Assembly (NCBI GenBank): GCA_038207725.1
Contig: JBBQZN010000004.1
Location: forward strand, 2,625-66,624
Reading direction: 5' to 3'
DNA: 64,000 nt
Origin: Bacteroidales bacterium
Lineage (GTDB): Bacteria > Bacteroidota > Bacteroidia > Bacteroidales > VadinHA17
Position numbers and translations under genes: made by a program. This document shows, piece by piece, positions 50,854 through 60,555 of this stretch (within the stretch, counting starts at the first letter, position 1; each line of letters opens with the position of its first letter). A model generated the notes under the pieces. The model made no database searches. It was not told where the DNA came from and was given only the letters and a program-made list of their open reading frames with translations.

Positions 50854-50942
50854 GGAGAGATGGCAGAGTGGTCGAATGCGGCGGTCTCGAAAACCGTTGT
50901 TCGCCTTACGGCGGACCGGGGGTTCGAATCCCCCTCTCTCCG
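50854..50942 (+). tRNA. tRNA-Ser (anticodon CGA), type II with a long variable arm
   Basis: Acceptor GGAGAGA/TCTCTCC; anticodon stem GCGGT/ACCGT with loop CTCGAAA; variable-arm hairpin CGCC-TTAC-GGCG; T arm GGGGG-TTCGAAT-CCCCC; discriminator G; CCA not encoded. Confidence 0.9.
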
Positions 50943-50957
50943 CAAAGTAAAAGCAAA

Positions 50958-51038: not shown

Positions 51039-51078
51039 AAAACACCGCGAAGCGGGTTTGCTTTGACTTTGCAAGGTT

Positions 51079-51271
51079 CCCCCAAAAGGGATCACGACCG
51101 AACGGAGAGAGGGCGTAATCCCTCCCCCAAAAGGGATCACGACCGAACGGAGAGAGGGCGTAATCCCTCCCCCAAAAGGGATCACGACCGAATGGAGAGA
51201 GGGCGTAATCCCTCCCCCAAAAGGGATCACCGACCGAACGGAGAGAGGGCGTAATCCCTCCCTCCCAAAAG
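51079..51271. repeat. 45-nt tandem repeat, about 4.25 units, GC-rich
   Basis: Unit cccccaaaagggatcacgaccgaacggagagagggcgtaatccct, with starts at 51079, 51124, 51169 and 51214. Unit 3 has one substitution, unit 4 a 1-nt insertion, and a degenerate partial unit ends the array. Each unit contains gaggg-cgtaat-ccctc. Confidence 0.95.
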
Positions 51272-52544: not shown

Positions 52545-52663
52545 TCATCCCCTGTGCCCTGCGTCCTTCACAATGACATTTTTCAACATTCTTTCAGAGT
52601 GTCTCTGTAGTTTGGAATAGCTTGTTATCTTTACATATTAACAGTAACACACAATTAAGAGCT

Positions 52664-53917
52664 ATGGAACTTAAGCGCCGGCTTATTATCATGAACTTCC
52701 TTCAGTTTTTCATCTGGGGATCGTGGCTGCTCACTATTGGAGCATATTGGTTTCAGAATAAAAACTGGTCGGGGACCGATTTCGGAGCTATCTTTTCAAC
52801 AATGGGTCTGGCTTCGCTCTTCATGCCGGCCATTGCCGGTATCATAGCCGACAGATGGGTTAATGCCGAGAAACTATATGGCATCTTTCATATTGCAGGC
52901 GCCATAGTACTTGCACTCATTCCGTCAGTCAATAATCCCGACACCTTTTTCTGGGTAATTCTGCTTGCGATGATGTTCTACATGCCCACTCTTGCTCTGT
53001 CAATAACAGTGGCATACAGCTCTATGAAGAACAGCGGCATGGATATCATAAAGGAATATCCGCCGGTGAGGGTCTGGGGGACTATAGGCTTCATTGTGGC
53101 ACTGTGGGTTGTGAGCCTGATGGGCTTTGAAACCTCTGCCATGCAGTTCTATGTTGCGGCTGCCTCATCGCTGCTGCTTGGTCTCTATTCCTTTACACTC
53201 CCAAAGTGTACACCAATGGGCAGGGGCCACAAGAAGAACCTGGCCGAAGTACTGGGTCTCAATGCTTTCAGGCTCTTTAAAAGCACTAAGATGGCCCTCT
53301 TCTTCATCTTCGCCATGCTGCTGGGCGGCGCTCTGCAGCTGACAAACGCCTATGGCGACACTTTTCTGCACGATTTCGCCGCTATACCAGAGTACAAAGA
53401 CCTTATCGCTGTAAGGTTTCCTGCAATAATAATGTCAGTATCACAGATCTCCGAAACTCTTTTTATTCTTGCCATTCCCTTTTTCCTGAAAAAGTTCGGA
53501 ATAAAGAAAGTGATGCTTATGAGCATGGTGGCATGGGTTCTCCGCTTCGGCCTGTTCGGATTCGGGAATCCGGCTGAAGGGCTTTGGCTGATAATCCTCT
53601 CATGCATCATTTATGGTATGGCCTTTGATTTCTTCAACATCTCCGGCTCACTCTTCGTGGAGACCCAGTGCACTCCTGACATACGTGCCAGCGCGCAGGG
53701 ACTGTTTATGATGATGACTAACGGCTTTGGTGCCTTCCTGGGCAGCAGAATCAGCGGGATTGTGATTGACAAATACTTTACTCTTGGAAGCGGGGCATTC
53801 GACTGGAAGGGGATCTGGTTCGTCTTTGCGGCATATTCCCTTGTGGTGGCAATACTATTCGCCATAGTCTTCAGGCATAAGCATGTTCCGGAGGAAACGG
53901 CAAATATCAGTCACTGA
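52664..53917 (+). CDS. Nucleoside:H+ symporter family MFS transporter (NupG/XapB-like)
   Basis: N-terminus RLIIMNFLQFFIWGSWLLTIG typical of the family; 12 predicted helices. ATG at 52664. Confidence 0.7.
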   Translation: MELKRRLIIMNFLQFFIWGSWLLTIGAYWFQNKNWSGTDFGAIFSTMGLASLFMPAIAGIIADRWVNAEKLYGIFHIAGAIVLALIPSVNNPDTFFWVILLAMMFYMPTLALSITVAYSSMKNSGMDIIKEYPPVRVWGTIGFIVALWVVSLMGFETSAMQFYVAAASSLLLGLYSFTLPKCTPMGRGHKKNLAEVLGLNAFRLFKSTKMALFFIFAMLLGGALQLTNAYGDTFLHDFAAIPEYKDLIAVRFPAIIMSVSQISETLFILAIPFFLKKFGIKKVMLMSMVAWVLRFGLFGFGNPAEGLWLIILSCIIYGMAFDFFNISGSLFVETQCTPDIRASAQGLFMMMTNGFGAFLGSRISGIVIDKYFTLGSGAFDWKGIWFVFAAYSLVVAILFAIVFRHKHVPEETANISH

Positions 53918-53942: not shown

Positions 53943-54740
53943 TCAGCGGTAGATCCCAATCTCTCCGTATAGGGGAATAGCCCTGTATATCATTTTTACA
54001 TCAGCCCTTGGCATTTTAATTTTAATATAAGGGTGATATTCGGGTACTTTAAATTTCAGAACACTATTAATGTTATTAAGAGTATTATAGACCTTCTCCT
54101 TCATATCAAAAGCAAAAAGGGCTCCTCTGTCTTTGTCTTCATCCTCTTCCTGACATATATAAATTCTGGTACCATTGGTCATATGCAGGATAATGCTAAC
54201 AGGTTCTGTAAGTGAAGTATCAGGCATAATATCAGGTTTGTATTCAGATGTGTCTTTAGGTGCAAGGCTTACCATTAAAGGTTCCTTCTTTATTGTGGCA
54301 ATAGATCCGGATATAATGAATGGTCTCGACAGCATTGACATGATTATATTGTCATTCCCCTCCATAAGCATTTTACTTACTTTTATCTCGCTCATTCTGG
54401 CCATATTAACTGCAACACCACTTATTTCAAGGTTTGCTGTGCTATCGGAAATATTAAGAGTCAAATAAATAGAGTCAGATTCAGCCATAGCAATCCTCGA
54501 CTGCAAAAATGCCCTGTCGTGAAAAAGCCTGAGATATGCTGAATCGGTATAAATGCGCTCATCTATAACTTTTTTCTCATCAATCTTTGGGGTATACTCC
54601 TCTTTCAATGCATCCATTTTCCGGCCCGGAGCCAGAAGCGACATTATTGTGTAATAGATAACAAAGATAAGGATGATCAATGTTCCGGTCAAAATGGCCA
54701 GTTTTCCGACTGATAATTTATTTTCGCTTTCAGTTTCCAT
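53943..54740 (-). CDS. Hypothetical single-pass membrane protein
   Basis: One N-terminal TM helix (LAILTGTLIILIFVIYYTIMSLL); no motif I recognise. Last gene of the L,D-transpeptidase operon. Confidence 0.5.
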   Translation of the reverse strand: METESENKLSVGKLAILTGTLIILIFVIYYTIMSLLAPGRKMDALKEEYTPKIDEKKVIDERIYTDSAYLRLFHDRAFLQSRIAMAESDSIYLTLNISDSTANLEISGVAVNMARMSEIKVSKMLMEGNDNIIMSMLSRPFIISGSIATIKKEPLMVSLAPKDTSEYKPDIMPDTSLTEPVSIILHMTNGTRIYICQEEDEDKDRGALFAFDMKEKVYNTLNNINSVLKFKVPEYHPYIKIKMPRADVKMIYRAIPLYGEIGIYR

Positions 54741-54751
54741 AATATTTCAGA

Positions 54752-55582
54752 TCAGAAAATGTAAACCTTGGAACCTATATTTAAAGTATTGAATATTGCC
54801 TTAAGGTCTTCGTCATTAAGACGTACGCATCCATGTGTAACGGGCATTCCAAGAAAGCGCTTGTAGATTGTACCATGAATCATGTAGCTATCCCCAAGAT
54901 CCATAGCATAATCGCCTAAGACACCTGCTTCCCATCTTAAGGGCGAATCCTTTGGAGGTATTGGCACTCCTTCTTCTATAAATGCCCAATCGGGTTTATG
55001 CCAGTAAGGGTTTGTTCTTTTGTTCTGTATTGAAAACTTGCCACGGGGAGTTTTGAAGGTCCAGCTTTTACCCTCTGCTGTAATAAGCTTCTTATAGCTT
55101 CCGGTGCTGCATGAACCTTCTCTTATAAGCTTCTTATTACGATAAAGCATAAACCTGTTATAAGTGGTATTTATAACAATGTATGATTGACCTGATGTAT
55201 AGCTGATGTATTTTCTAGAAAGACGCTGAACGTCGCGATTCAGTGCGGCAATAAGCTTTTTGTAAGCCGCATCGTTCTGTAGCTCTTCACTGATTTCTAT
55301 TTTAGATTTATCAACTGAAGCCATCTCCTGAACACGTGGTACGCCATAGAGCATAAACACTACTATGAGAAAAGCGGCAAGCACTCCGGAAAAGATAAAG
55401 AAAATCGTACTGACTATATTGAATAATCTGGTATTGGCCCTGAATTTTGCCCAAACCGGGGCCAGAAAATTCTGATTTTCATTACTGTCCTTATCACCTG
55501 CCGGCTTTATTTCAGTCAGAGCATTTGACAACTCATCTTTTATTTCTTCATTTTCCATTTCAGAAAATTTATCTTTCAACAA
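54752..55582 (-). CDS. L,D-transpeptidase (YkuD domain), membrane-anchored
   Basis: Acidic N-terminal tail, TM helix, catalytic MIHGTIY...GMPVTHGCVRLN. Confidence 0.8.
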   Translation of the reverse strand: MLKDKFSEMENEEIKDELSNALTEIKPAGDKDSNENQNFLAPVWAKFRANTRLFNIVSTIFFIFSGVLAAFLIVVFMLYGVPRVQEMASVDKSKIEISEELQNDAAYKKLIAALNRDVQRLSRKYISYTSGQSYIVINTTYNRFMLYRNKKLIREGSCSTGSYKKLITAEGKSWTFKTPRGKFSIQNKRTNPYWHKPDWAFIEEGVPIPPKDSPLRWEAGVLGDYAMDLGDSYMIHGTIYKRFLGMPVTHGCVRLNDEDLKAIFNTLNIGSKVYIF

Positions 55583-56681
55583 CTTCTTTCAGTTCAACAA
55601 CTGATCCTACAATTGTCACCGGAGTTCCAACTCTTGCTATCTTAAAAACTAAATCCATCTCTTTGTCGGTAAGAGCCACACAACCTTCTGTCCAATCGAT
55701 TCCTTTTCCACCGTTACCATGAATTTCAATAAGCCCTCCGATCTTTGCTGATGCAGGAAGTGATCCACTGGCAATTTCGGATTTGAACTTTGCCTTATCT
55801 TTATCATTCGGATAATCGAGAAGCAATGCCTTATAATATTTCGTTTTACTGCCGTCAAATTTCCTGCTAATCTTATACATACCCTCCGGAGTTGCTTTAT
55901 CACCCTTTACTCTCTTATCGCCAACCCAGTTTGCTCCCAGCTCAGCTTCGAACTCATATTTTTTGTAGCCGTTAAGATAGATAAAACATTTCCGTGAAAA
56001 TTTATCAATAATTATTGAATATTCACTGTTTTTTCTTGACTCATTTATCGTTTTGTCGACCCACCCTTTCCATACAGAAAATGATTTGAAATATTCTTTC
56101 AGGTTTGCGCTTGCATAGAGATGTGATTCGGTAAGCAGATACTCAGAATCAGTAATTTTCCTGTTTGCCTGAAGATATTGTCCGTTTTTGTAAGCTACCT
56201 CAGCCTCTTTAAGTAACATCTTACCTTTTGAGATCCGGGTCCTGATCTCAGAAGTAAGCGGGTAAGTAGTAAAAAGATCATTGATCTCAACAATTAGGTT
56301 ATTGAGGTCATTGATCTTCTGCTTTAGCTTCGCTTTGAGGCTGGCAGTACTTCCGATGGCATTATCAGCTGCCTCGTTGGCTTTTTTTGCCGACATGTCA
56401 GCAAACATTGCCACTCTTTCATAATTTCTGATATAGATAAAGCGGTCGTTCTGTCTGCCCCAGTTTACCATTGCAGAATCATAATAAACCTTAGCCTGGT
56501 TATAAAGTTTCTTAGAATAAGTATCAGCTCTTTTTTTTGCTGCCATGGAAAGTGATTCCCTGGCAAATTCCATCTCACTTTCAGGAGGATCAGGAGTGAG
56601 GCGGATCAACAGTAAAATCATTAATGGAACAGACACTGCCACCACTATGAAAACAAGCATATCTCTCCAGTTTCTTCTCAT
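55569..56681 (-). CDS. L,D-transpeptidase family protein (divergent YkuD domain) with an N-terminal helical domain
   Basis: TM helix, helical repeat region, C-terminal IEIHGNGGKGIDWTEGCVALTDKEM (His...Cys YkuD pattern). Overlaps the next gene by 14 nt. Confidence 0.65.
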   Translation of the reverse strand: MRRNWRDMLVFIVVAVSVPLMILLLIRLTPDPPESEMEFARESLSMAAKKRADTYSKKLYNQAKVYYDSAMVNWGRQNDRFIYIRNYERVAMFADMSAKKANEAADNAIGSTASLKAKLKQKINDLNNLIVEINDLFTTYPLTSEIRTRISKGKMLLKEAEVAYKNGQYLQANRKITDSEYLLTESHLYASANLKEYFKSFSVWKGWVDKTINESRKNSEYSIIIDKFSRKCFIYLNGYKKYEFEAELGANWVGDKRVKGDKATPEGMYKISRKFDGSKTKYYKALLLDYPNDKDKAKFKSEIASGSLPASAKIGGLIEIHGNGGKGIDWTEGCVALTDKEMDLVFKIARVGTPVTIVGSVVELKEVVER

Positions 56682-56700
56682 ACCTGCAATTGATGAATTT

Positions 56701-56731
56701 AAAAAACCCCCGGGAAATCCCGGGGGTTTTT
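56701..56731 (-). terminator. Bidirectional GC-rich terminator after the Ala-rich lipoprotein gene
   Basis: 8-bp all-GC stem cccccggg/cccggggg, loop aaat, flanked by A6 and T5. Confidence 0.8.
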
Positions 56732-56752
56732 AATATTTGACAAGAAAGAAAA

Positions 56753-57349
56753 TTACTTCCTTCCTTTTACTTTAGCAATAGCATCATTAAGTTCGGTATT
56801 GATACCGGTAGCTTTTTCTTTAGCAGCTTTTGCTTTGTTGCTTGCATCCATGTAAGCACCTTTGTCATACATAGCCTGAGCTTCAACGATAGAAGCTTCG
56901 ATAGTAGCCATGTCAGCCTTCATAGCCTCAAGAACTGCAGCACCTTCTTTGCCCCTTGGCGCTTTTTTCATAAGTGCGGTATTCTCTTCAACTACTGCTT
57001 TGATCTCTGTCATTAAAGTATCAACTTCTTTTTTAACTTCGTCTTTTTTAACAGCAGCATTGGCAGCAACCTGATTTGCAAGAGCTGTTGTAGCTACGAG
57101 TTTTTCTTTAGCTGGACCAAATTTCTTGAATAATTTTGATTCCTGAACAGCAATGTCAGCCATAATAGCAGTCATTGAATCCTGTACTGCAGCAAATTCA
57201 GCAGGTACATAAACTGCAGCTTCAGCAGTTTTTGCAGCTTCGATAGCTGCAGTTGTAGCATCAATTTCAACCTGTGGTTTCTTACCACAACTAGAAAGGA
57301 CAGCAACCATTGCGATAGCAGCTAATCCCATTAAAATTTTGTTCTTCAT
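56753..57349 (-). CDS. Ala/Lys-rich alpha-helical lipoprotein, C-terminus -GRK
   Basis: Lipobox AVLSSCGKK. The mature part is almost entirely helix-forming residues (A, E, K). The last codons read GGA AGG AAG TAA. Has its own promoter-like box and a GC-rich terminator. Confidence 0.7.
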   Translation of the reverse strand: MKNKILMGLAAIAMVAVLSSCGKKPQVEIDATTAAIEAAKTAEAAVYVPAEFAAVQDSMTAIMADIAVQESKLFKKFGPAKEKLVATTALANQVAANAAVKKDEVKKEVDTLMTEIKAVVEENTALMKKAPRGKEGAAVLEAMKADMATIEASIVEAQAMYDKGAYMDASNKAKAAKEKATGINTELNDAIAKVKGRK

Positions 57350-57429: not shown

Positions 57430-57460
57430 CAAAGATACTAAAAATACGGAATATTACAAG
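57430..57460 (-). promoter_or_regulatory. Bacteroidota-type promoter of the Ala-rich lipoprotein gene
   Basis: The minus strand reads CTTG-N19-TATCTTTG (box at 57430-57437), about 80 nt upstream of the ATG. Confidence 0.4.
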
Positions 57461-57538: not shown

Positions 57539-58909
57539 TTACTCTGCAGTTATACCGAGTTTCTTAAGTCCTGACTGAATCTCCGTGCATGACATAAAGA
57601 GATCCCAGAGCAGAGCTGACCTGTAATTTTCAATCATAATAATCATCGGACCCTGGTCAATTGCCAGATATTTTTGCGGGAACCAGTTGTCTTGTTCGCT
57701 GAAAGCGTCATAAAAACCATATTCTCCCCATATTTTACCTTCATGTCCGTAGTAGAAGTTCTTTATAGCGTCCATCGACTTGTCAGGAGTATATGGTATA
57801 GAACTTACTGCAGCAGTAGGTGATATAACACCGAGATCGTTCTTCTCACCCGGGGCATGAGCAGCATATCCTTTGACGGAGTAACTTGCTGTAAGTCCCC
57901 AGCAATAAGTGCCGTAGCCCTCAAAATCGAGAGGATTGAGAGAACACCATTTCCAGTTAATAAGTGTATGATTCGTGTTTTCCTGCCAGTAATCAGCATA
58001 CTTGTCTTTCAGTTTGCGCGGATCAAGTCCAAGGTATGAATAGTGCGACCAGAAAAGCGGACCACCGTATTCTTCTGCCCCGTTGTGCTTTAATTTAAGT
58101 ACATATCCATATTTGCCACTCACGGTATTTATCCCTCCCGATCTTGCCCAACCCTCGTGATAAGCCTCTGCTTTAACAGGGAATGTAGGTGATGACGCAG
58201 CCAGTATATAAAGTATCAGACACTCATTGTAGCCTTGAACAGCGAAATTCATGGCCCAACCGTAATCAGGCGACCAGTGCCAGTAGATGACATTCTCTCC
58301 TCCTTTTGTGAACCAGCTCCACTCTACTCCTTTCCATATTTTATCAATATCTGAAGATAAAATCCTTTCAGATTCATTACCTTCTGCAAAGTATTGTCGT
58401 ACAGCCAGAAGTCCCTGCATTAAATATGCTGTTTCAACCAGATCAGCACCATTATCTTTGGGGGAAAATGGTTTTACCCTGCCTGTTTCACCATCTATCC
58501 AATGCGAATAGGAGCCATGAAACCGGTCAGTTTTCTGCAGGAATCCAACAATCTTTTGAAATCTGATGAGACCGTCTTCCCTTGTAATAAAGCCTCTTTC
58601 TATCCCTGCCAGAATTGCCATTACTCCGAAGCCGCTTCCTCCTGATGTAACAATATTCATATCGTTCTGAGGATAAATTCCGTCAACGTGGATTCGTTCA
58701 CGTGCCATTCCTGAATTTGGTTCTGCACCATTCCAGAAATATTGAAATGTACGGTACTGCACCAGAGTAAGCAGTGAATCTTCACTTAAAATTTGTTGCG
58801 TTGAAGCACTCTCAGATGAACCTGAAGTCTTTACAGAAGAGCTTATGCAGGAGCTTACAGTAACCAGTACAAATAAGGAATAAAACAGTAGTTTTTTCAT
58901 TCTGATCAA
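57539..58909 (-). CDS. Glucoamylase-like (alpha/alpha)6 glycoside hydrolase, possibly GH144 endo-beta-1,2-glucanase family
   Basis: Lipoprotein signal. Motifs shared with the paralog: LLTLVQ..TF.YFW, SG.ARER, TSGGSGFG.MAIL.GIERGFITR, DRFHG...HW..G.TG, KDNG.DLVETA.LMQGLL. Family call is from memory of PF10091-type proteins. Confidence 0.55.
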   Translation of the reverse strand: MIRMKKLLFYSLFVLVTVSSCISSSVKTSGSSESASTQQILSEDSLLTLVQYRTFQYFWNGAEPNSGMARERIHVDGIYPQNDMNIVTSGGSGFGVMAILAGIERGFITREDGLIRFQKIVGFLQKTDRFHGSYSHWIDGETGRVKPFSPKDNGADLVETAYLMQGLLAVRQYFAEGNESERILSSDIDKIWKGVEWSWFTKGGENVIYWHWSPDYGWAMNFAVQGYNECLILYILAASSPTFPVKAEAYHEGWARSGGINTVSGKYGYVLKLKHNGAEEYGGPLFWSHYSYLGLDPRKLKDKYADYWQENTNHTLINWKWCSLNPLDFEGYGTYCWGLTASYSVKGYAAHAPGEKNDLGVISPTAAVSSIPYTPDKSMDAIKNFYYGHEGKIWGEYGFYDAFSEQDNWFPQKYLAIDQGPMIIMIENYRSALLWDLFMSCTEIQSGLKKLGITAE

Positions 58910-60555
58910 TATGTAAATCCAAGTTTATCTAATCCGTTTTTCACCTCCGGCGCTGACATGAAAAGGTTCCAGAGAAGCCCTGATCTGTAATTTTCAATCA
59001 TGCATATTAAAGATCCCTGATCAATGGCGATATATGAATCTGCAAACCACAGGGTTGACAGATTAAAGGAATCATAGAAGCCATATTCACCCCATATCTT
59101 GTCACCCAGTATATAATAAAAGAACTTCAGGGCAGTAAGACTTTCTGCCGGTGTATATGGCATTGATGACAAAGCCGCTGTAGGAGCTATAACCCCAAGG
59201 TCATTTGTGGGTGAGCTGGCACTGTAACCCGATTGAATGTCGCTTGCAGTTAAACCCCAGCACGAAGCACTGTAACCTGTGAATTTTTTAGGGTTTGCAA
59301 TACAATAATTATAGTTTATTCTGGAATGAGCAACATTCTGATCGAAATAGTCAGCATACTGATCAGTGAGATTCCGGGGATCGAGTCCCAGAAATGAATA
59401 ATGGGCAAAGAACATAGGCCCGCCATAATCTGGTCCCAGAGGAAGACTAACATTATAAAATGTTTTGCCATTCTTCATAGGATAAGCACCATTTCTGGCC
59501 CAGCCTTCATCATAAACGGCTTTTGTAATAGAATGAGTCGGGGAAGCTGCAGCCAGAACATAGACTATGAGAGCTTCATTCCAGCCTGAAACAGGCATAT
59601 TCAGATCCCGGTTATAATTGGGTGACCAGTGCCAGTATAATTTATTCTGATTATCTCTTCTGTACCAGTTCCAATCGACATTTTCATAAATTTTCTGTAT
59701 CGTATCGCAGAGAGCTTTTTCCTGTAATGAACCATTTTTAAAGTACTCTTTTACTGTTAGCAGTCCCTGCATAAGAAATGCTGTTTCAACAAGGTCTCCG
59801 CCATTATCTTTCTGACTGAAGGGAATTACGTCTCCTGTTGTACCATTAAGCCAGTGAGGAAAGGCACCATGGAACCTGTCGGTACTTCCTGAAATCAGAA
59901 AATCAGCTGTTTTGCGTATCCTCTCAAACCCTTGCTGGCGGGTAATAAAACCACGTTCAATTCCTGTGAGAATCGCCATCAGACCGAATCCGCTGCCTCC
60001 TGATGTAACAATATTGCCTGAGCCAAGTCGCTCTCTTGCAAGTCCTGAGACAGGGTGAGCATGGTCCCAGAAATATCTGAAAGTATGTTTCTGCACCAAG
60101 GTTAAAAGAGAGTCATCAGATATAATCGGAAACTTAGGCAGGGTATCGAGCCTTGTTGAAAATGTAAACGAGAAACCTTCAGAAATTACACCCCCAAGGT
60201 TAGGTCCCACATCAAAAACCATCCTGTAAACTTTGAGCGGATCTGCTTCTTCCGAGAGTTCAATTAACATTGAAGTTGAACTATCATTGAATCTGCAGGT
60301 ATACAGAGTATCAATTTCTCCGCTGAAAAATAATTTAGCTTTATTGAAGTGTATTGTATCAATCTTTTTATTGAAGGTTATGCTTACCAGAACTTTAATG
60401 AAATCAACATTGCTTATTCTGCCTGCATCTGATACAATATTCCCGTTAACTGAAACATCTTCAATCAATATTATATCATCGGGAATAGCATTGGGATCCT
60501 TCTTACAGGAAACAAAAAGGAATATTGTGCTTATGAATAAGCAAAGTAGTTTCAT
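58906..60555 (-). CDS. Glucoamylase-like glycoside hydrolase paralog with an extra N-terminal beta-sandwich domain
   Basis: Lipobox FVSCKK, about 140 aa of extra N-terminal domain, then the same motif set as 57539-58909. Its stop overlaps the next gene's start. Confidence 0.55.
   Translation of the reverse strand: MKLLCLFISTIFLFVSCKKDPNAIPDDIILIEDVSVNGNIVSDAGRISNVDFIKVLVSITFNKKIDTIHFNKAKLFFSGEIDTLYTCRFNDSSTSMLIELSEEADPLKVYRMVFDVGPNLGGVISEGFSFTFSTRLDTLPKFPIISDDSLLTLVQKHTFRYFWDHAHPVSGLARERLGSGNIVTSGGSGFGLMAILTGIERGFITRQQGFERIRKTADFLISGSTDRFHGAFPHWLNGTTGDVIPFSQKDNGGDLVETAFLMQGLLTVKEYFKNGSLQEKALCDTIQKIYENVDWNWYRRDNQNKLYWHWSPNYNRDLNMPVSGWNEALIVYVLAAASPTHSITKAVYDEGWARNGAYPMKNGKTFYNVSLPLGPDYGGPMFFAHYSFLGLDPRNLTDQYADYFDQNVAHSRINYNYCIANPKKFTGYSASCWGLTASDIQSGYSASSPTNDLGVIAPTAALSSMPYTPAESLTALKFFYYILGDKIWGEYGFYDSFNLSTLWFADSYIAIDQGSLICMIENYRSGLLWNLFMSAPEVKNGLDKLGFTY

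Follow-up and report, generated by a model that had tools for sequence, protein, structure and literature searches.

The window analysed here, a 64,000-nucleotide stretch of Bacteroidales DNA, contains a group of four genes on its (-) strand, in which a lipoprotein gene is followed by genes for two YkuD-family enzymes and a membrane protein. The first gene (56753..57349, (-)) is an ORF for a protein of 198 aa, comprising a signal peptide, a lipobox L-S-S-C (residues 18-21; 57287..57298, (-)) with Cys21 as the lipidated residue, a predicted tandem spectrin-like helical rod and a basic C-terminal tail K-V-K-G-R-K (residues 193-198; 56756..56773, (-)), whose terminal residue is variable among orthologs; the protein ends ...AIAKVKGRK before the stop codon at 56753-56755 (-). 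The other genes, all on the (-) strand, encode a 370-aa membrane-anchored YkuD enzyme (YkuD370; 55569..56681), a classical L,D-transpeptidase (YkuD276; 54752..55558) and a 265-aa single-pass membrane protein (53943..54740). An earlier note on this DNA had described a 198-aa lipoprotein with an LSSC lipobox and a KVKGRK end, and downstream of it a divergent YkuD protein, a classical L,D-transpeptidase and a single-pass protein; all of these are present on the same strand, the lipoprotein in the position given for it.

The lipoprotein belongs to a family that comprises 1703 clusters when grouped at 90% identity and 897 when grouped at 50%. Cys21 is invariant in the aligned family members (119/119), and among the 120 closest homologs 111 have the LSSC motif. 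The other conserved features of the family are an N-terminal C-x-K-x-P-Q-x-E-I-D segment, an internal P-x-G-K-E-G turn and a short Lys-containing basic tail. Weak matches to DUF4398 (PF14346) were observed for 57 of the 119 family members (best E 1.2e-8), and distant members also have faint or weak precomputed matches to it, but the window's own protein did not match this family at E <= 0.1. DUF4398 is itself uncharacterised, and the papers found to name it do so only in passing. No LPP match was obtained for the window lipoprotein in Pfam; given this, its mature length of 177 aa (versus 58 for Lpp) and its modelled multi-helix rod, it is not an Lpp homolog.

The mature part of the lipoprotein had been described as an almost pure Ala/Glu/Lys helix. 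The helical character is supported by the AF2 model (pLDDT 94, pTM 0.81), in which ~88% of the mature protein is helical (helices 26-41, 49-70, 78-129, 134-162, and 166-197), but the composition is less uniform than that, as A, E, and K together account for 47% of the residues. The protein is confidently modelled as a tandem spectrin-like rod, which is newly recognised here; this topology and the central helix of 52 residues give an estimated length of ~75-80 Å. The best geometric match by Foldseek was the spectrin-type N-terminal domain of Borrelia BB0323 (PMC12758692; probability 0.96-0.99, TM 0.44-0.57, rmsd 5.4-5.8 Å over ~165 columns), with non-significant E-values of 0.3-0.5 and a sequence identity of 10-13%. 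Judging from the helix lengths and the fold matches, Lys134 and the C-terminus would both lie at the end of the rod that is far from the lipid anchor.

The promoter box and the GC-rich terminator that had been proposed for this gene were both located. A Bacteroidota-type -7 box, TATCTTTG (57430..57437, (-)), precedes the lipoprotein ATG by 80 nt and probably serves as a promoter; on this strand no other TAnnTTTG lies upstream of the four genes, and ~30 of the 79 orthologous loci have such a box ~80-90 nt before the ATG. After the gene, an intrinsic terminator or attenuator hairpin, AAAAACCCCCGGG-ATTT-CCCGGGGGTTTTT plus a T-run (56701..56731, (-)), ends 20 nt before the next ATG. Its GC core is CCCCCGGG-ATTT-CCCGGGGG followed by T6 (stem 56726-56707, T-run 56706-56701, (-)), and with its A/U extension the hairpin has an energy of -25.1 kcal/mol (z = -5 vs shuffles). 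A hairpin with a T-run is present at the equivalent place in 78 of 80 orthologous species loci, including a compensatory change in locus L002 (TCCCTGGG...CCCAGGGA). This hairpin was not among the terminators listed by a generic terminator scan. No promoter box was found between the lipoprotein and enzyme genes, and the gap from the terminator to the next ATG leaves no room for a separate promoter. A conserved terminator just before the enzyme genes, with no box between, suggests an abundant lipoprotein and scarcer enzymes, a layout comparable to that of pilin or sortase-substrate operons.

The 370-aa enzyme consists of an N-terminal TM helix, a helical stalk and a hydrolase-type YkuD domain (H321, C334). 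It scores 54.1 bits against Pfam YkuD (cut-off 23.4) and carries IEIHGNGGKGIDWTEGCVAL, with H321, G322, and C334 invariant across 34 orthologs. Its best NCBIfam match is LdtF_DpaA_YafK, at 33.8 bits far under the cut-off of 365, and in a PDB profile search the nearest structures were 7o21, Pgp2, 8ikr, and 4xzz, with the I-H-G...GC-x-A-L active site aligned. By these sequence comparisons the enzyme belongs to the Pgp2/Csd6/DpaA hydrolase-type branch, and the best NCBIfam match and the nearest solved structures agree with the earlier suggestion that the divergent YkuD protein is a relative of DpaA/LdtF. Its stalk domain (residues ~24-186; 56124..56612, (-)) aligns with the lipoprotein family by hhalign over 161 columns (probability 98.6%, E 1.3e-15), and for distant members the lipoprotein and the stalk also match each other by plain tblastn (E 2e-10) and by HMM cross-matches (E 1e-10 to 7e-12). 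The lipoprotein is thus a paralog of the N-terminal stalk of this enzyme, a relationship that is newly recognised here. Homology of this kind suits a protein-protein partnership just as well as it suits a covalent substrate.

The second YkuD protein has a cytoplasmic N-terminus, a TM helix and a YkuD domain with MIHG...THGCVRLN (86.3 bits against Pfam YkuD). Residues H228, G229, H242, G243, C244, and R246 are invariant across 35 of its orthologs, and the solved structure closest to it is that of the L,D-transpeptidase 4lzh. The gene most likely starts at the ATG at 55558 (268 aa, MENEE...) and not at the TTG at 55582 (276 aa), because the orthologs begin ME.... The catalytic His and Cys are retained in both YkuD proteins. 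The fourth gene, whose product has a single hydrophobic helix, at its N-terminus, and an invariant motif rich in Pro, Asp and Thr, APKDTSEYKPDxxPDTS, is kept 3' of the transpeptidase gene in nearly all loci; this protein has 1124 homologs, all without a name, it gave no family match in Pfam or NCBIfam, and its AF2 model (pLDDT 49) is unusable.

In all 80 species loci found via the lipoprotein, the order lipoprotein-YkuD370-YkuD276-265-aa gene is preserved while the flanks vary, and in a reciprocal test via the 370-aa enzyme the lipoprotein gene was directly upstream in 68 of the 68 metagenome loci with enough upstream DNA. The adjacency of lipoprotein and YkuD genes, which the earlier note had suggested checking in related genomes, is conserved across phyla, far beyond what chance would produce. 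Distant members with 32-38% identity also have the module; they come from GC-rich genomes, among them Gemmatimonadota, and the lipoprotein and both YkuD genes are retained in Eisenbacteria. These four genes constitute a conserved cell-envelope module of FCB-group bacteria, carried by many uncultured members of the Bacteroidales and of related phyla, and no description of this four-gene module was found in a literature search. As the lipoprotein is always encoded with both YkuD enzymes and the membrane protein, these proteins almost certainly have a joint role at the cell wall. There is no cultured-strain name among the matches listed, the only genus-level name being a Breznakibacter sp. MAG; hence the system is probably accessory.

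The earlier note had also put forward the terminal Lys as an anchor to peptidoglycan in the manner of Braun lipoprotein, while naming its non-conservation in orthologs as an argument to the contrary, and this proposal did not survive comparison with the relatives. In 80 species the terminal residue is K in 30, F in 26, R in 23, and M in one, and Lys is terminal in 57 of 131 diverse representatives and in 25 of 61 orthologs from an independent metagenome sample. Overall, only 37-44% of the orthologs end in Lys, others ending in Phe, Arg, Ile or other residues. K-to-R swaps are seen even between lipoproteins that are at least 79% identical, and the full module is retained in lineages where the lipoprotein ends in -RR, -RIRF, -RRIG or -TAAH. 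From composition, 59% of orthologs would be expected to have a Lys in their final 8 residues, and 92-100% do. Because the terminal residue varies while the module remains intact, selection acts upon the basic tail and not upon the terminal amine. A C-terminal Lys by itself carries little information, since 11 of the 47 long ORFs of the window (23%) end likewise, as do >20% of the periplasmic proteins and lipoproteins of E. coli (PMC12274547). Covalent attachment through a different, non-terminal Lys is possible.

A candidate for such a residue is found in the P-R-G-K-E-G turn (residues 131-136; 56942..56959, (-)), which the alignments mark as the defining feature of the lipoprotein family and which is also newly recognised here. 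Among 119 family members, P131 is conserved in 114, G133 in 110 and the internal K134 in 117 (~98%), with Arg at position 134 in none, whereas the adjacent K132 exchanges freely with Arg. The PxGK core is present in 80/80 species orthologs and 59/61 metagenome orthologs. The homologous stalk in YkuD370 has YPL at that place instead of the turn, which is therefore not required for the fold. That K134 is never replaced by Arg suggests that the amine, rather than the charge, is important. A Lys could also be invariant in a tight turn for structural reasons or for docking.

Our preferred reading of these observations, which we put forward tentatively, is that the rod lipoprotein is a dedicated transpeptidase substrate attached via a non-terminal Lys. 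Cys21 would anchor the rod in a membrane; the E. coli +2 rule (which may not be that of Bacteroidota) would place this residue in the inner leaflet of the outer membrane. The Lys-rich distal tip (the K134 turn and the tail) would be displayed at the level of the peptidoglycan. The classical L,D-transpeptidase would form an acyl-enzyme on a tetrapeptide stem, and its resolution by the ε-amine of a tip Lys would fix the rod to meso-DAP. The homologous stalk would hold the Pgp2/DpaA-like enzyme at the same height as the rod, where it may hydrolyse the same type of bond, either trimming tetrapeptide donors or freeing the lipoprotein, and partial read-through of the terminator would provide much substrate and little enzyme. 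LDT-made links via a non-terminal Lys have precedents, namely an internal Lys used for LDT-dependent peptidoglycan attachment in Coxiella LimB (PMC12274547) and an attachment Lys 11 residues from the C-terminus in Legionella Lpg1810 (PMC11841132).

Nearly as likely is that the lipoprotein is a non-covalent partner or scaffold that never becomes joined to the wall, pairing side by side with the 370-aa stalk or docking on the YkuD domains via its P-x-G-K-E-G tip, and that it positions, activates or restrains both enzymes at the peptidoglycan by a logic like that of LpoA/LpoB-PBP or BB0323 N-terminal domain complexes. The paralogy of lipoprotein and stalk favours this, as does the lateral association that is common among spectrin-type repeats. 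The co-occurrence of lipoprotein and enzyme is obligate in both directions, and the variable terminal residue removes the sole specific clue to covalent attachment. Further, the nearest structural match, the BB0323 N-terminal domain, acts via a protein-protein complex (PMC12758692). However, the conserved terminator suggests a large excess of lipoprotein over the enzymes, and 1:1 partners are not usually made in such excess; the avoidance of Arg at K134 points to an amine and not a charge.

A strict analogy with Braun lipoprotein, in which Lys198 is the acceptor, YkuD276 has the role of LdtA/B/C and YkuD370 that of DpaA, at least in Lys-ending lineages including that of the window, is unlikely. 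The window protein ends in -GRK, an LDT adjoins a DpaA-branch paralog, and a short C-terminal Lys box suffices for attachment in Dickeya (PMC12274547); among the 120 closest homologs, the terminal residue is Lys in 100, but it is Arg in 18, Asn in one and Gln in one. The known Lpp/OutB mechanism requires its Lys at the C-terminus (PMC12274547), where 56-63% of the orthologs have another residue, and the intact modules with F, R, G or H ends, the selection on the basic tail, the frequency of terminal Lys by chance and the lack of homology to Lpp also argue against the analogy. While the terminal Lys is a conceivable acceptor in lineages like that of the window, it cannot be a family trait. That the lipoprotein is a generic DUF4398-like periplasmic helical protein lying upstream of a wall-remodelling operon and sharing no function with it would accord with its own promoter box and terminator and with the weak DUF4398 matches, but this is highly improbable in view of the synteny across phyla amid changing flanks, the homology to the stalk of the neighbouring enzyme and the lack of room for a separate promoter.

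In comparison with known systems, the module resembles Lpp with LdtA/B/C and DpaA (LdtF/YafK) of the Enterobacterales in that its lipoprotein is helical, rod-like and, by our estimate, roughly similar in length to Lpp (~83 Å), its gene adjoins two YkuD genes, one for a classical transpeptidase and one for a DpaA-branch paralog, and the gene layout suggests an abundant lipoprotein. It differs in that the lipoprotein has no sequence homology to Lpp and no conserved terminal Lys, in its modelled multi-helix spectrin-like form, whereas Lpp is a 58-aa single helix that trimerises, and in that both enzymes are membrane-anchored, one of them bearing a copy of the rod. Lpp is restricted to four gammaproteobacterial orders (10.1101/2021.05.31.446380). 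LimB, Lpg1810, and Dickeya OutB are non-Lpp cases of LDT-dependent attachment, the first two with the chemistry hypothesised here for K134 or a tail Lys; these cases are proteobacterial and, unlike the module, the available portions of their descriptions mention no dedicated substrate gene cluster. With LpoA/LpoB, the outer-membrane lipoproteins that activate PBP1A/PBP1B, the module, if the lipoprotein is a non-covalent partner, shares the concept of a lipoprotein reaching a membrane-anchored peptidoglycan enzyme across the periplasm. The Lpo genes are not clustered with those of their PBPs and have no homology to the module, whose enzymes are YkuD-type. Like the modelled rod, the matching part of BB0323 of Borrelia burgdorferi is a helical domain of a lipoprotein. 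The C-terminal part of BB0323 has LysM and a role in outer-membrane integrity; BB0323 reaches the wall via its LysM domain, whereas the module lipoprotein has none. Lastly, the YkuD domain of the 370-aa enzyme aligns best with Pgp2 (Campylobacter), 4xzz/4y4v (which we take to be H. pylori Csd6), 7o21 (presumably Bdellovibrio Bd1075) and 8ikr (YafK-like), sharing I-H-G ... T-x-G-C-[IV]-A-L, in which Ala replaces the Arg of classical LDTs. The similarity is modest (E 1e-8 to 2e-6) and the activity is a predicted one; in place of the NTF2-like or dimerisation domains of Pgp2-type enzymes, the 370-aa enzyme has a TM helix and a spectrin-like stalk.

The four genes at 53943-57349 on the minus strand are closely packed, and reading of the sequence bears out the genes, promoter box and terminator described there by the earlier note. 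The first gene (56753-57349) encodes a 198 aa lipoprotein that carries a signal peptide with lipobox LSSC and whose C-terminus reads ...AIAKVKGRK. It is followed on the same strand by the gene (55569-56681) for a 370 aa YkuD enzyme, which we will refer to as YkuD370, comprised of an N-terminal hydrophobic helix, approximately 180 helical residues and a YkuD domain with IEIHGNGGKGIDWTEGCVAL; by that for a classical L,D-transpeptidase (54752-55558) with a cytoplasmic N-terminus, one TM helix and the motifs MIHG...THGCVRLN; and by that for a single-pass protein of 265 aa without a family match (53943-54740). For the transpeptidase, the start at ATG 55558 (MENEE..., 268 aa) is backed by the orthologs; the alternative, an upstream TTG at 55582, is the start in the mechanical ORF list and overlaps the stop of the preceding gene. 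A promoter-type box TATCTTTG (57437-57430, minus strand) is present upstream of the lipoprotein gene; on this strand, a motif search found no other such box ahead of the four genes, and none in the stretch from the start of the lipoprotein gene to the ATG of YkuD370. The lipoprotein gene is followed by a hairpin, CCCCCGGG-ATTT-CCCGGGGG plus T6 (56701-56731, minus strand), which ends 20 nt 5' of the next ATG and folds with -25.1 kcal/mol (z = -5). A generic promoter/terminator scan did not report it; its presence was established by reading and folding the sequence and by comparing it with the orthologous loci. In a scan of one genome per species, which yielded 80 loci, the hairpin and its T-run are kept in 78, with an almost fixed stem sequence, variable loops and a compensatory pair in one locus (L002), and the intergenic region between the lipoprotein and YkuD370 genes is usually about 75 nt long. 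Because no promoter box intervenes, the terminator is conserved and the three genes 3' of the lipoprotein gene are separated by gaps of only about 10 nt each, the YkuD enzymes are probably made by read-through of the terminator, at lower levels than the lipoprotein. The layout is like that of sortase-substrate and pilin operons, where an abundant structural gene is followed by a terminator and then by a transpeptidase. As a separate observation, the stem CCCCGGG/CCCGGGG, which contains a SmaI-type palindrome, is conserved throughout these loci (L001-L080) although their coding sequences share only 60-85% identity; free variation is confined to the loop, and the conservation of the stem exceeds the needs of a generic terminator.

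The 80 species loci, all from uncultured Bacteroidales/Bacteroidota MAGs, carry a relative of the lipoprotein with 54-86% identity, and the four genes are found in identical order in every locus where the contig extends far enough. The flanks of these loci differ. Two tandem paralogous lipoprotein-type genes (57539-58909 and 58906-60555, minus strand) lie directly upstream of the module in the window, both with the Pfam domain "Glycoamylase" (PF10091; 6.7e-80 for the first); one or both are upstream in about half of the species loci, and they are frequent neighbours that lie outside the module. The nucleoside:H+ symporter gene (52622-53917, plus strand; PF03825, 8e-134), which is convergent with the module, is downstream in only 4 of the 80 loci (L056, L065, L073, and L075). 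Elsewhere in the window, a tRNA-Ser gene (anticodon CGA, 50854-50943) is followed after about 135 nt by a tandem repeat (51078-51271) consisting of 4.2 copies of the 45-bp unit TCCCCCAAAAGGGATCACGACCGAACGGAGAGAGGGCGTAATCCC at 96% identity, which gives rise to spurious repetitive ORFs on both strands. The module is also kept in distant members of the family, with 32-38% identity and from GC-rich genomes, including an unassigned contig (L081) and loci L085 and L086. A Gemmatimonadota contig has all four genes, and a Candidatus Eisenbacteria genome the lipoprotein and both YkuD genes. On a candidate division KSB1 contig (L089:5880-6583) mere remnants are present 3' of an intact lipoprotein gene, viz. 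a 24-residue stretch 75% identical to the active site of YkuD370 and about 50 residues of the 265-aa protein, which suggests a decayed module in this lineage or a problem of assembly. In a reciprocal test, 80 metagenome loci were identified through YkuD370 (40-75% identity), 12 of which start too near the contig end and were left out. The lipoprotein gene is located directly upstream of YkuD370 in all 68 loci with at least about 300 nt of upstream DNA, two of these cases being established by reading of the ORFs. An apparent fusion of the two YkuD genes in loci L019 and L056 was rejected, the tblastn match having run across a stop codon. The adjacency of the lipoprotein and YkuD genes, which the earlier note had proposed to look for in related genomes, thus extends from the species loci to distant phyla and to the enzyme-seeded sample; the neighbourhood is meaningful, and the four genes form an obligate module.

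The lipoprotein family groups into 1703 clusters when cut at 90% identity, or 897 when cut at 50%, has a uniform length of about 195-205 aa and also occurs in Breznakibacter sp. genomes. The lipobox L-S-S-C corresponds to residues 18-21, its Cys21 is invariant in all 119 aligned members, and the protein qualifies as a bacterial lipoprotein. Near-invariance is also seen at Y47, at P25, which lies in a C-x-K-x-P-Q-x-E-I-D segment immediately behind the lipid anchor, and in the turn A130-P131-(K/R)-G133-K134-E-G136. Within this turn, K134 is Lys in 117 of the 119 members and Arg in none, whereas the adjacent K132 exchanges freely with Arg; the core P-x-G-K is found in 80/80 species orthologs and 59/61 metagenome orthologs, and in the clade whose members end in Phe the turn reads LPRGKEG. 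In Pfam and NCBIfam, the window's lipoprotein has no match to LPP (PF04728) at E <= 0.1, nor is LPP one of the 25 listed Pfam families that have matches in the largest numbers of the 119 members. A weak match to DUF4398 (PF14346) was observed for 57 of the 119 members at E <= 0.1 (best 1.2e-8), the window's own lipoprotein having none at this threshold, and we consider the family, from these profile matches, to be probably a distant branch of DUF4398, which is itself uncharacterised in the literature searched. Matches to Pup, DUF4245, PilJ, PG1828_fam_lipo, and LptM were all far below cut-off in Pfam/NCBIfam and were rejected, those to PG1828_fam_lipo and LptM being restricted to the signal-peptide end (residues 1-59 and 1-24), and a PDB sequence search gave nothing meaningful. 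The export signal of Bacteroidota lipoproteins is an acidic run at positions +2 to +5; the residues following the Cys here are G-K-K-P-Q-V-E-I-D, which lack such a run, and a surface-exposed location was thought unlikely, with low weight.

The AF2 model of the lipoprotein (pLDDT 94, pTM 0.81; 119-sequence alignment) shows the 177 aa mature protein as five helices (residues 26-41, 49-70, 78-129, 134-162, and 166-197) folded back on each other. The earlier description of the mature part as an almost pure Ala/Glu/Lys helix is overstated: A+E+K account for 47% of the mature protein, which is about 88% helical in the model. The lengths and topology of the helices imply a predicted rod of about 75-80 Å, in which two short three-helix bundles have the 52-residue central helix in common. 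This rod would have the lipidated N-terminus at one end, with the C-terminal tail grouped with K134 and the turn at 130-133 at the other. No solved structure was significant in a Foldseek search with the model; the N-terminal domain of BB0323, which is of the spectrin-repeat type (PMC12758692), was matched with a Foldseek probability of 0.96-0.99 and TM of 0.44-0.57, but with E of 0.3-0.5, and there were lesser matches to the vinculin head and plakin spectrin repeats.

Both YkuD enzymes appear from their sequences to be catalytically intact, with matches to YkuD (PF03734) of 54.1 bits for YkuD370 and 86.3 bits for the transpeptidase (cut-off 23.4). The residues H321, G322 and C334 of the former and H228/G229/.../H242-G-C244-x-R246 of the latter are invariant across orthologs. 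The transpeptidase is a classical LDT, whose closest solved structure is 4lzh. The PDB profile search with YkuD370 matched 7o21, Pgp2 (6xj6/6xj7), 8ikr, which carries a YafK-like HGDCVSIGCYAMT motif, and 4xzz/4y4v; its T-E-G-C-V-A-L was aligned with T-R-G-C-I-A-L of Pgp2. In NCBIfam the best match was to the equivalog LdtF_DpaA_YafK (NF040599), for which YkuD370 scored 33.8 bits where the cut-off is 365, and thus this enzyme is, as judged from these profiles, a member of the hydrolase-type branch together with Pgp2, 4xzz, and 8ikr and not an ortholog of DpaA. The suggestion that the divergent YkuD is the counterpart of DpaA therefore stands as regards the branch, but not as regards orthology. 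The characterised members of the Pgp2/DpaA branch are either L,D-carboxypeptidases (Pgp2, Csd6, Bd1075) or the Lpp-releasing amidase DpaA. A YkuD-type T6SS toxin with its immunity protein was also considered and dropped, as the enzymes and their partners are housekeeping-style and membrane-anchored; the gene calls of the loci that were examined include no secretion genes. The 265-aa protein was considered as a possible degenerate YkuD; no YkuD match was found in 42 members of its family, the hhalign alignment with the transpeptidase family, although colinear, is weak (probability 9.6%, E 0.0034), and the AF2 model of the protein is poor (pLDDT 49). At the C-terminus, the sequence R-x-D-x-K-x-I-Y-R-A-x-P-x-x-G is similar to the end of a YkuD domain, without the catalytic His and Cys, and residues ~150-176 contain an almost invariant motif, I-K-K-E-P-...-A-P-K-D-T-S-E-Y-K-P-D-x-x-P-D-T-S, which is Pro/Asp/Thr-rich and linear and falls in a region that is unstructured in AF2.

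In a profile-profile comparison, the lipoprotein family aligned with the YkuD370 family with a probability of 98.6% (E 1.3e-15, 161 columns), residues 16-183 of the lipoprotein corresponding to residues 24-186 of the enzyme. The alignment starts directly behind the membrane anchor in both (PQVEID and PPESEM), and cross-matches between lipoprotein and stalk were also obtained in distant members by plain tblastn (E 2e-10) and HMM (1e-10 to 7e-12). By these alignments the lipoprotein is a paralog of the YkuD370 stalk, and an enzyme that has its neighbour's paralog as a stalk is in itself an unusual architecture. The duplication is old, because both copies are present in Gemmatimonadota. In place of the lipoprotein's A-P-x-G-K-E-G the enzyme stalk has Y-P-L, so that the fold can do without the Lys turn. 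The tip of the rod is Lys-rich and conserved. The reading that we tentatively favour is that the lipoprotein is a dedicated acceptor substrate of the classical LDT; this enzyme would join the rod to meso-DAP by a distal-tip Lys, either K134 or one in the tail. The homologous rod would keep the stalked hydrolase-type enzyme at the same height as the lipoprotein, and this enzyme may trim tetrapeptide donors or free the lipoprotein. Nearly as likely is a non-covalent role, where the lipoprotein would be a partner or scaffold, either paired with the homologous stalk or docked on the enzymes; the paralogy fits this reading equally well. The lipoprotein would then be an accessory factor dedicated to the YkuD enzymes, which would also explain the purpose of a DUF4398-like rod.

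A strict analogy with Lpp, as proposed in the earlier note, would have the terminal Lys (K198) as the anchor, one YkuD enzyme attaching it and the paralog releasing it. The closest homologs agree with this, 100 of the nearest 120 (79% identity or more) ending in K (R 18, N 1, Q 1), but the wider family does not: the last residue is K in 30 of the 80 species orthologs (F 26, R 23, M 1), in 57 of 131 representatives of the 50%-identity clusters (R 34, other 40) and in 25 of 61 sequences of the independent enzyme-seeded metagenome sample (F 18, R 9, I 5, other 4). The tails of the species orthologs fall into the classes -KVKGRK, -KVRR, -KARI(K/R)F and Pro/Ala/Lys-rich extensions ending in -KKK, and the complete module is retained in lineages that end in Arg, Phe, -RRIG or -TAAH. 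Lack of conservation of this residue in orthologs, which the earlier note had named as grounds for refuting its proposal, is thus what the family displays. Chance alone also makes a terminal Lys frequent: 11 of 47 long ORFs of the window have one, as do over 20% of the periplasmic proteins and lipoproteins of E. coli (PMC12274547). In the known Lpp/OutB mechanism the attachment Lys must be C-terminal (PMC12274547). A change from K to R keeps the charge and loses the nucleophile, and selection therefore acts on a basic tail and not on the terminal amine. At least one Lys is found among the last eight residues of 92% of the representatives and of 100% of both ortholog sets, compared to 59% predicted from composition. 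In six loci (L009, L010, L015, L025, L045, and L079) the tail is longer by 10-40 residues of Pro/Ala/Lys repeats (e.g., ...AAKPAAKPAAAPKKK), a flexible, Lys-rich appendage that would fit either wall contact or an acceptor role of the tail. The terminal-Lys mechanism is accordingly improbable, and at best a lineage-specific special case; the linkage of the genes is firmer than the earlier note could know, and its specific mechanistic hook is weakened. The remaining explanation, that these are unrelated neighbours, is in practice excluded.

The module is widespread in environmental Bacteroidales, reaches Gemmatimonadota and Eisenbacteria, and includes two unnamed protein families with more than 1000 clusters each; in the literature searched, no description of the module or of the lipoprotein family was found. 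How the outer membrane is attached to the wall in diderms beyond the Enterobacterales is an open question, for which the module, with its four genes, an invariant lysine and two catalytic cysteines, is a concrete candidate. A survey of tethering systems reports Lpp from no more than four gammaproteobacterial orders, and from Bacteroidota and their relatives nothing but Pal and sporadic OmpA (10.1101/2021.05.31.446380); the FCB-group bacteria are without Lpp. It is conceivable, if rather doubtful, that the module provides these bacteria with a covalent strut of their own between membrane and peptidoglycan, a spectrin-like rod in which the invariant Lys of the P-x-G-K-E-G turn, or an adjacent tail Lys, would be bonded to meso-DAP by the dedicated, co-encoded LDT and the stalked YkuD would edit or release the bond, its duplicate rod acting as a molecular ruler. 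The rod would then determine by its length how far the membrane is from the wall, which is the role of Lpp in E. coli, with a five-helix protein, according to the model, in place of the short single helix of a trimeric coiled coil. Precedents for links through a non-terminal Lys are provided by LimB, which is linked by an LDT via an internal Lys, and by Lpg1810, where the Lys is 11 residues from the C-terminus (PMC12274547, PMC11841132); in the present family the adduct is only hypothesised, with indirect pointers in K134, which is never Arg, and in the tail, where 92-100% of orthologs keep a Lys. The module can be grouped with envelope proteins that act together with L,D-transpeptidases and may be tethered by them.
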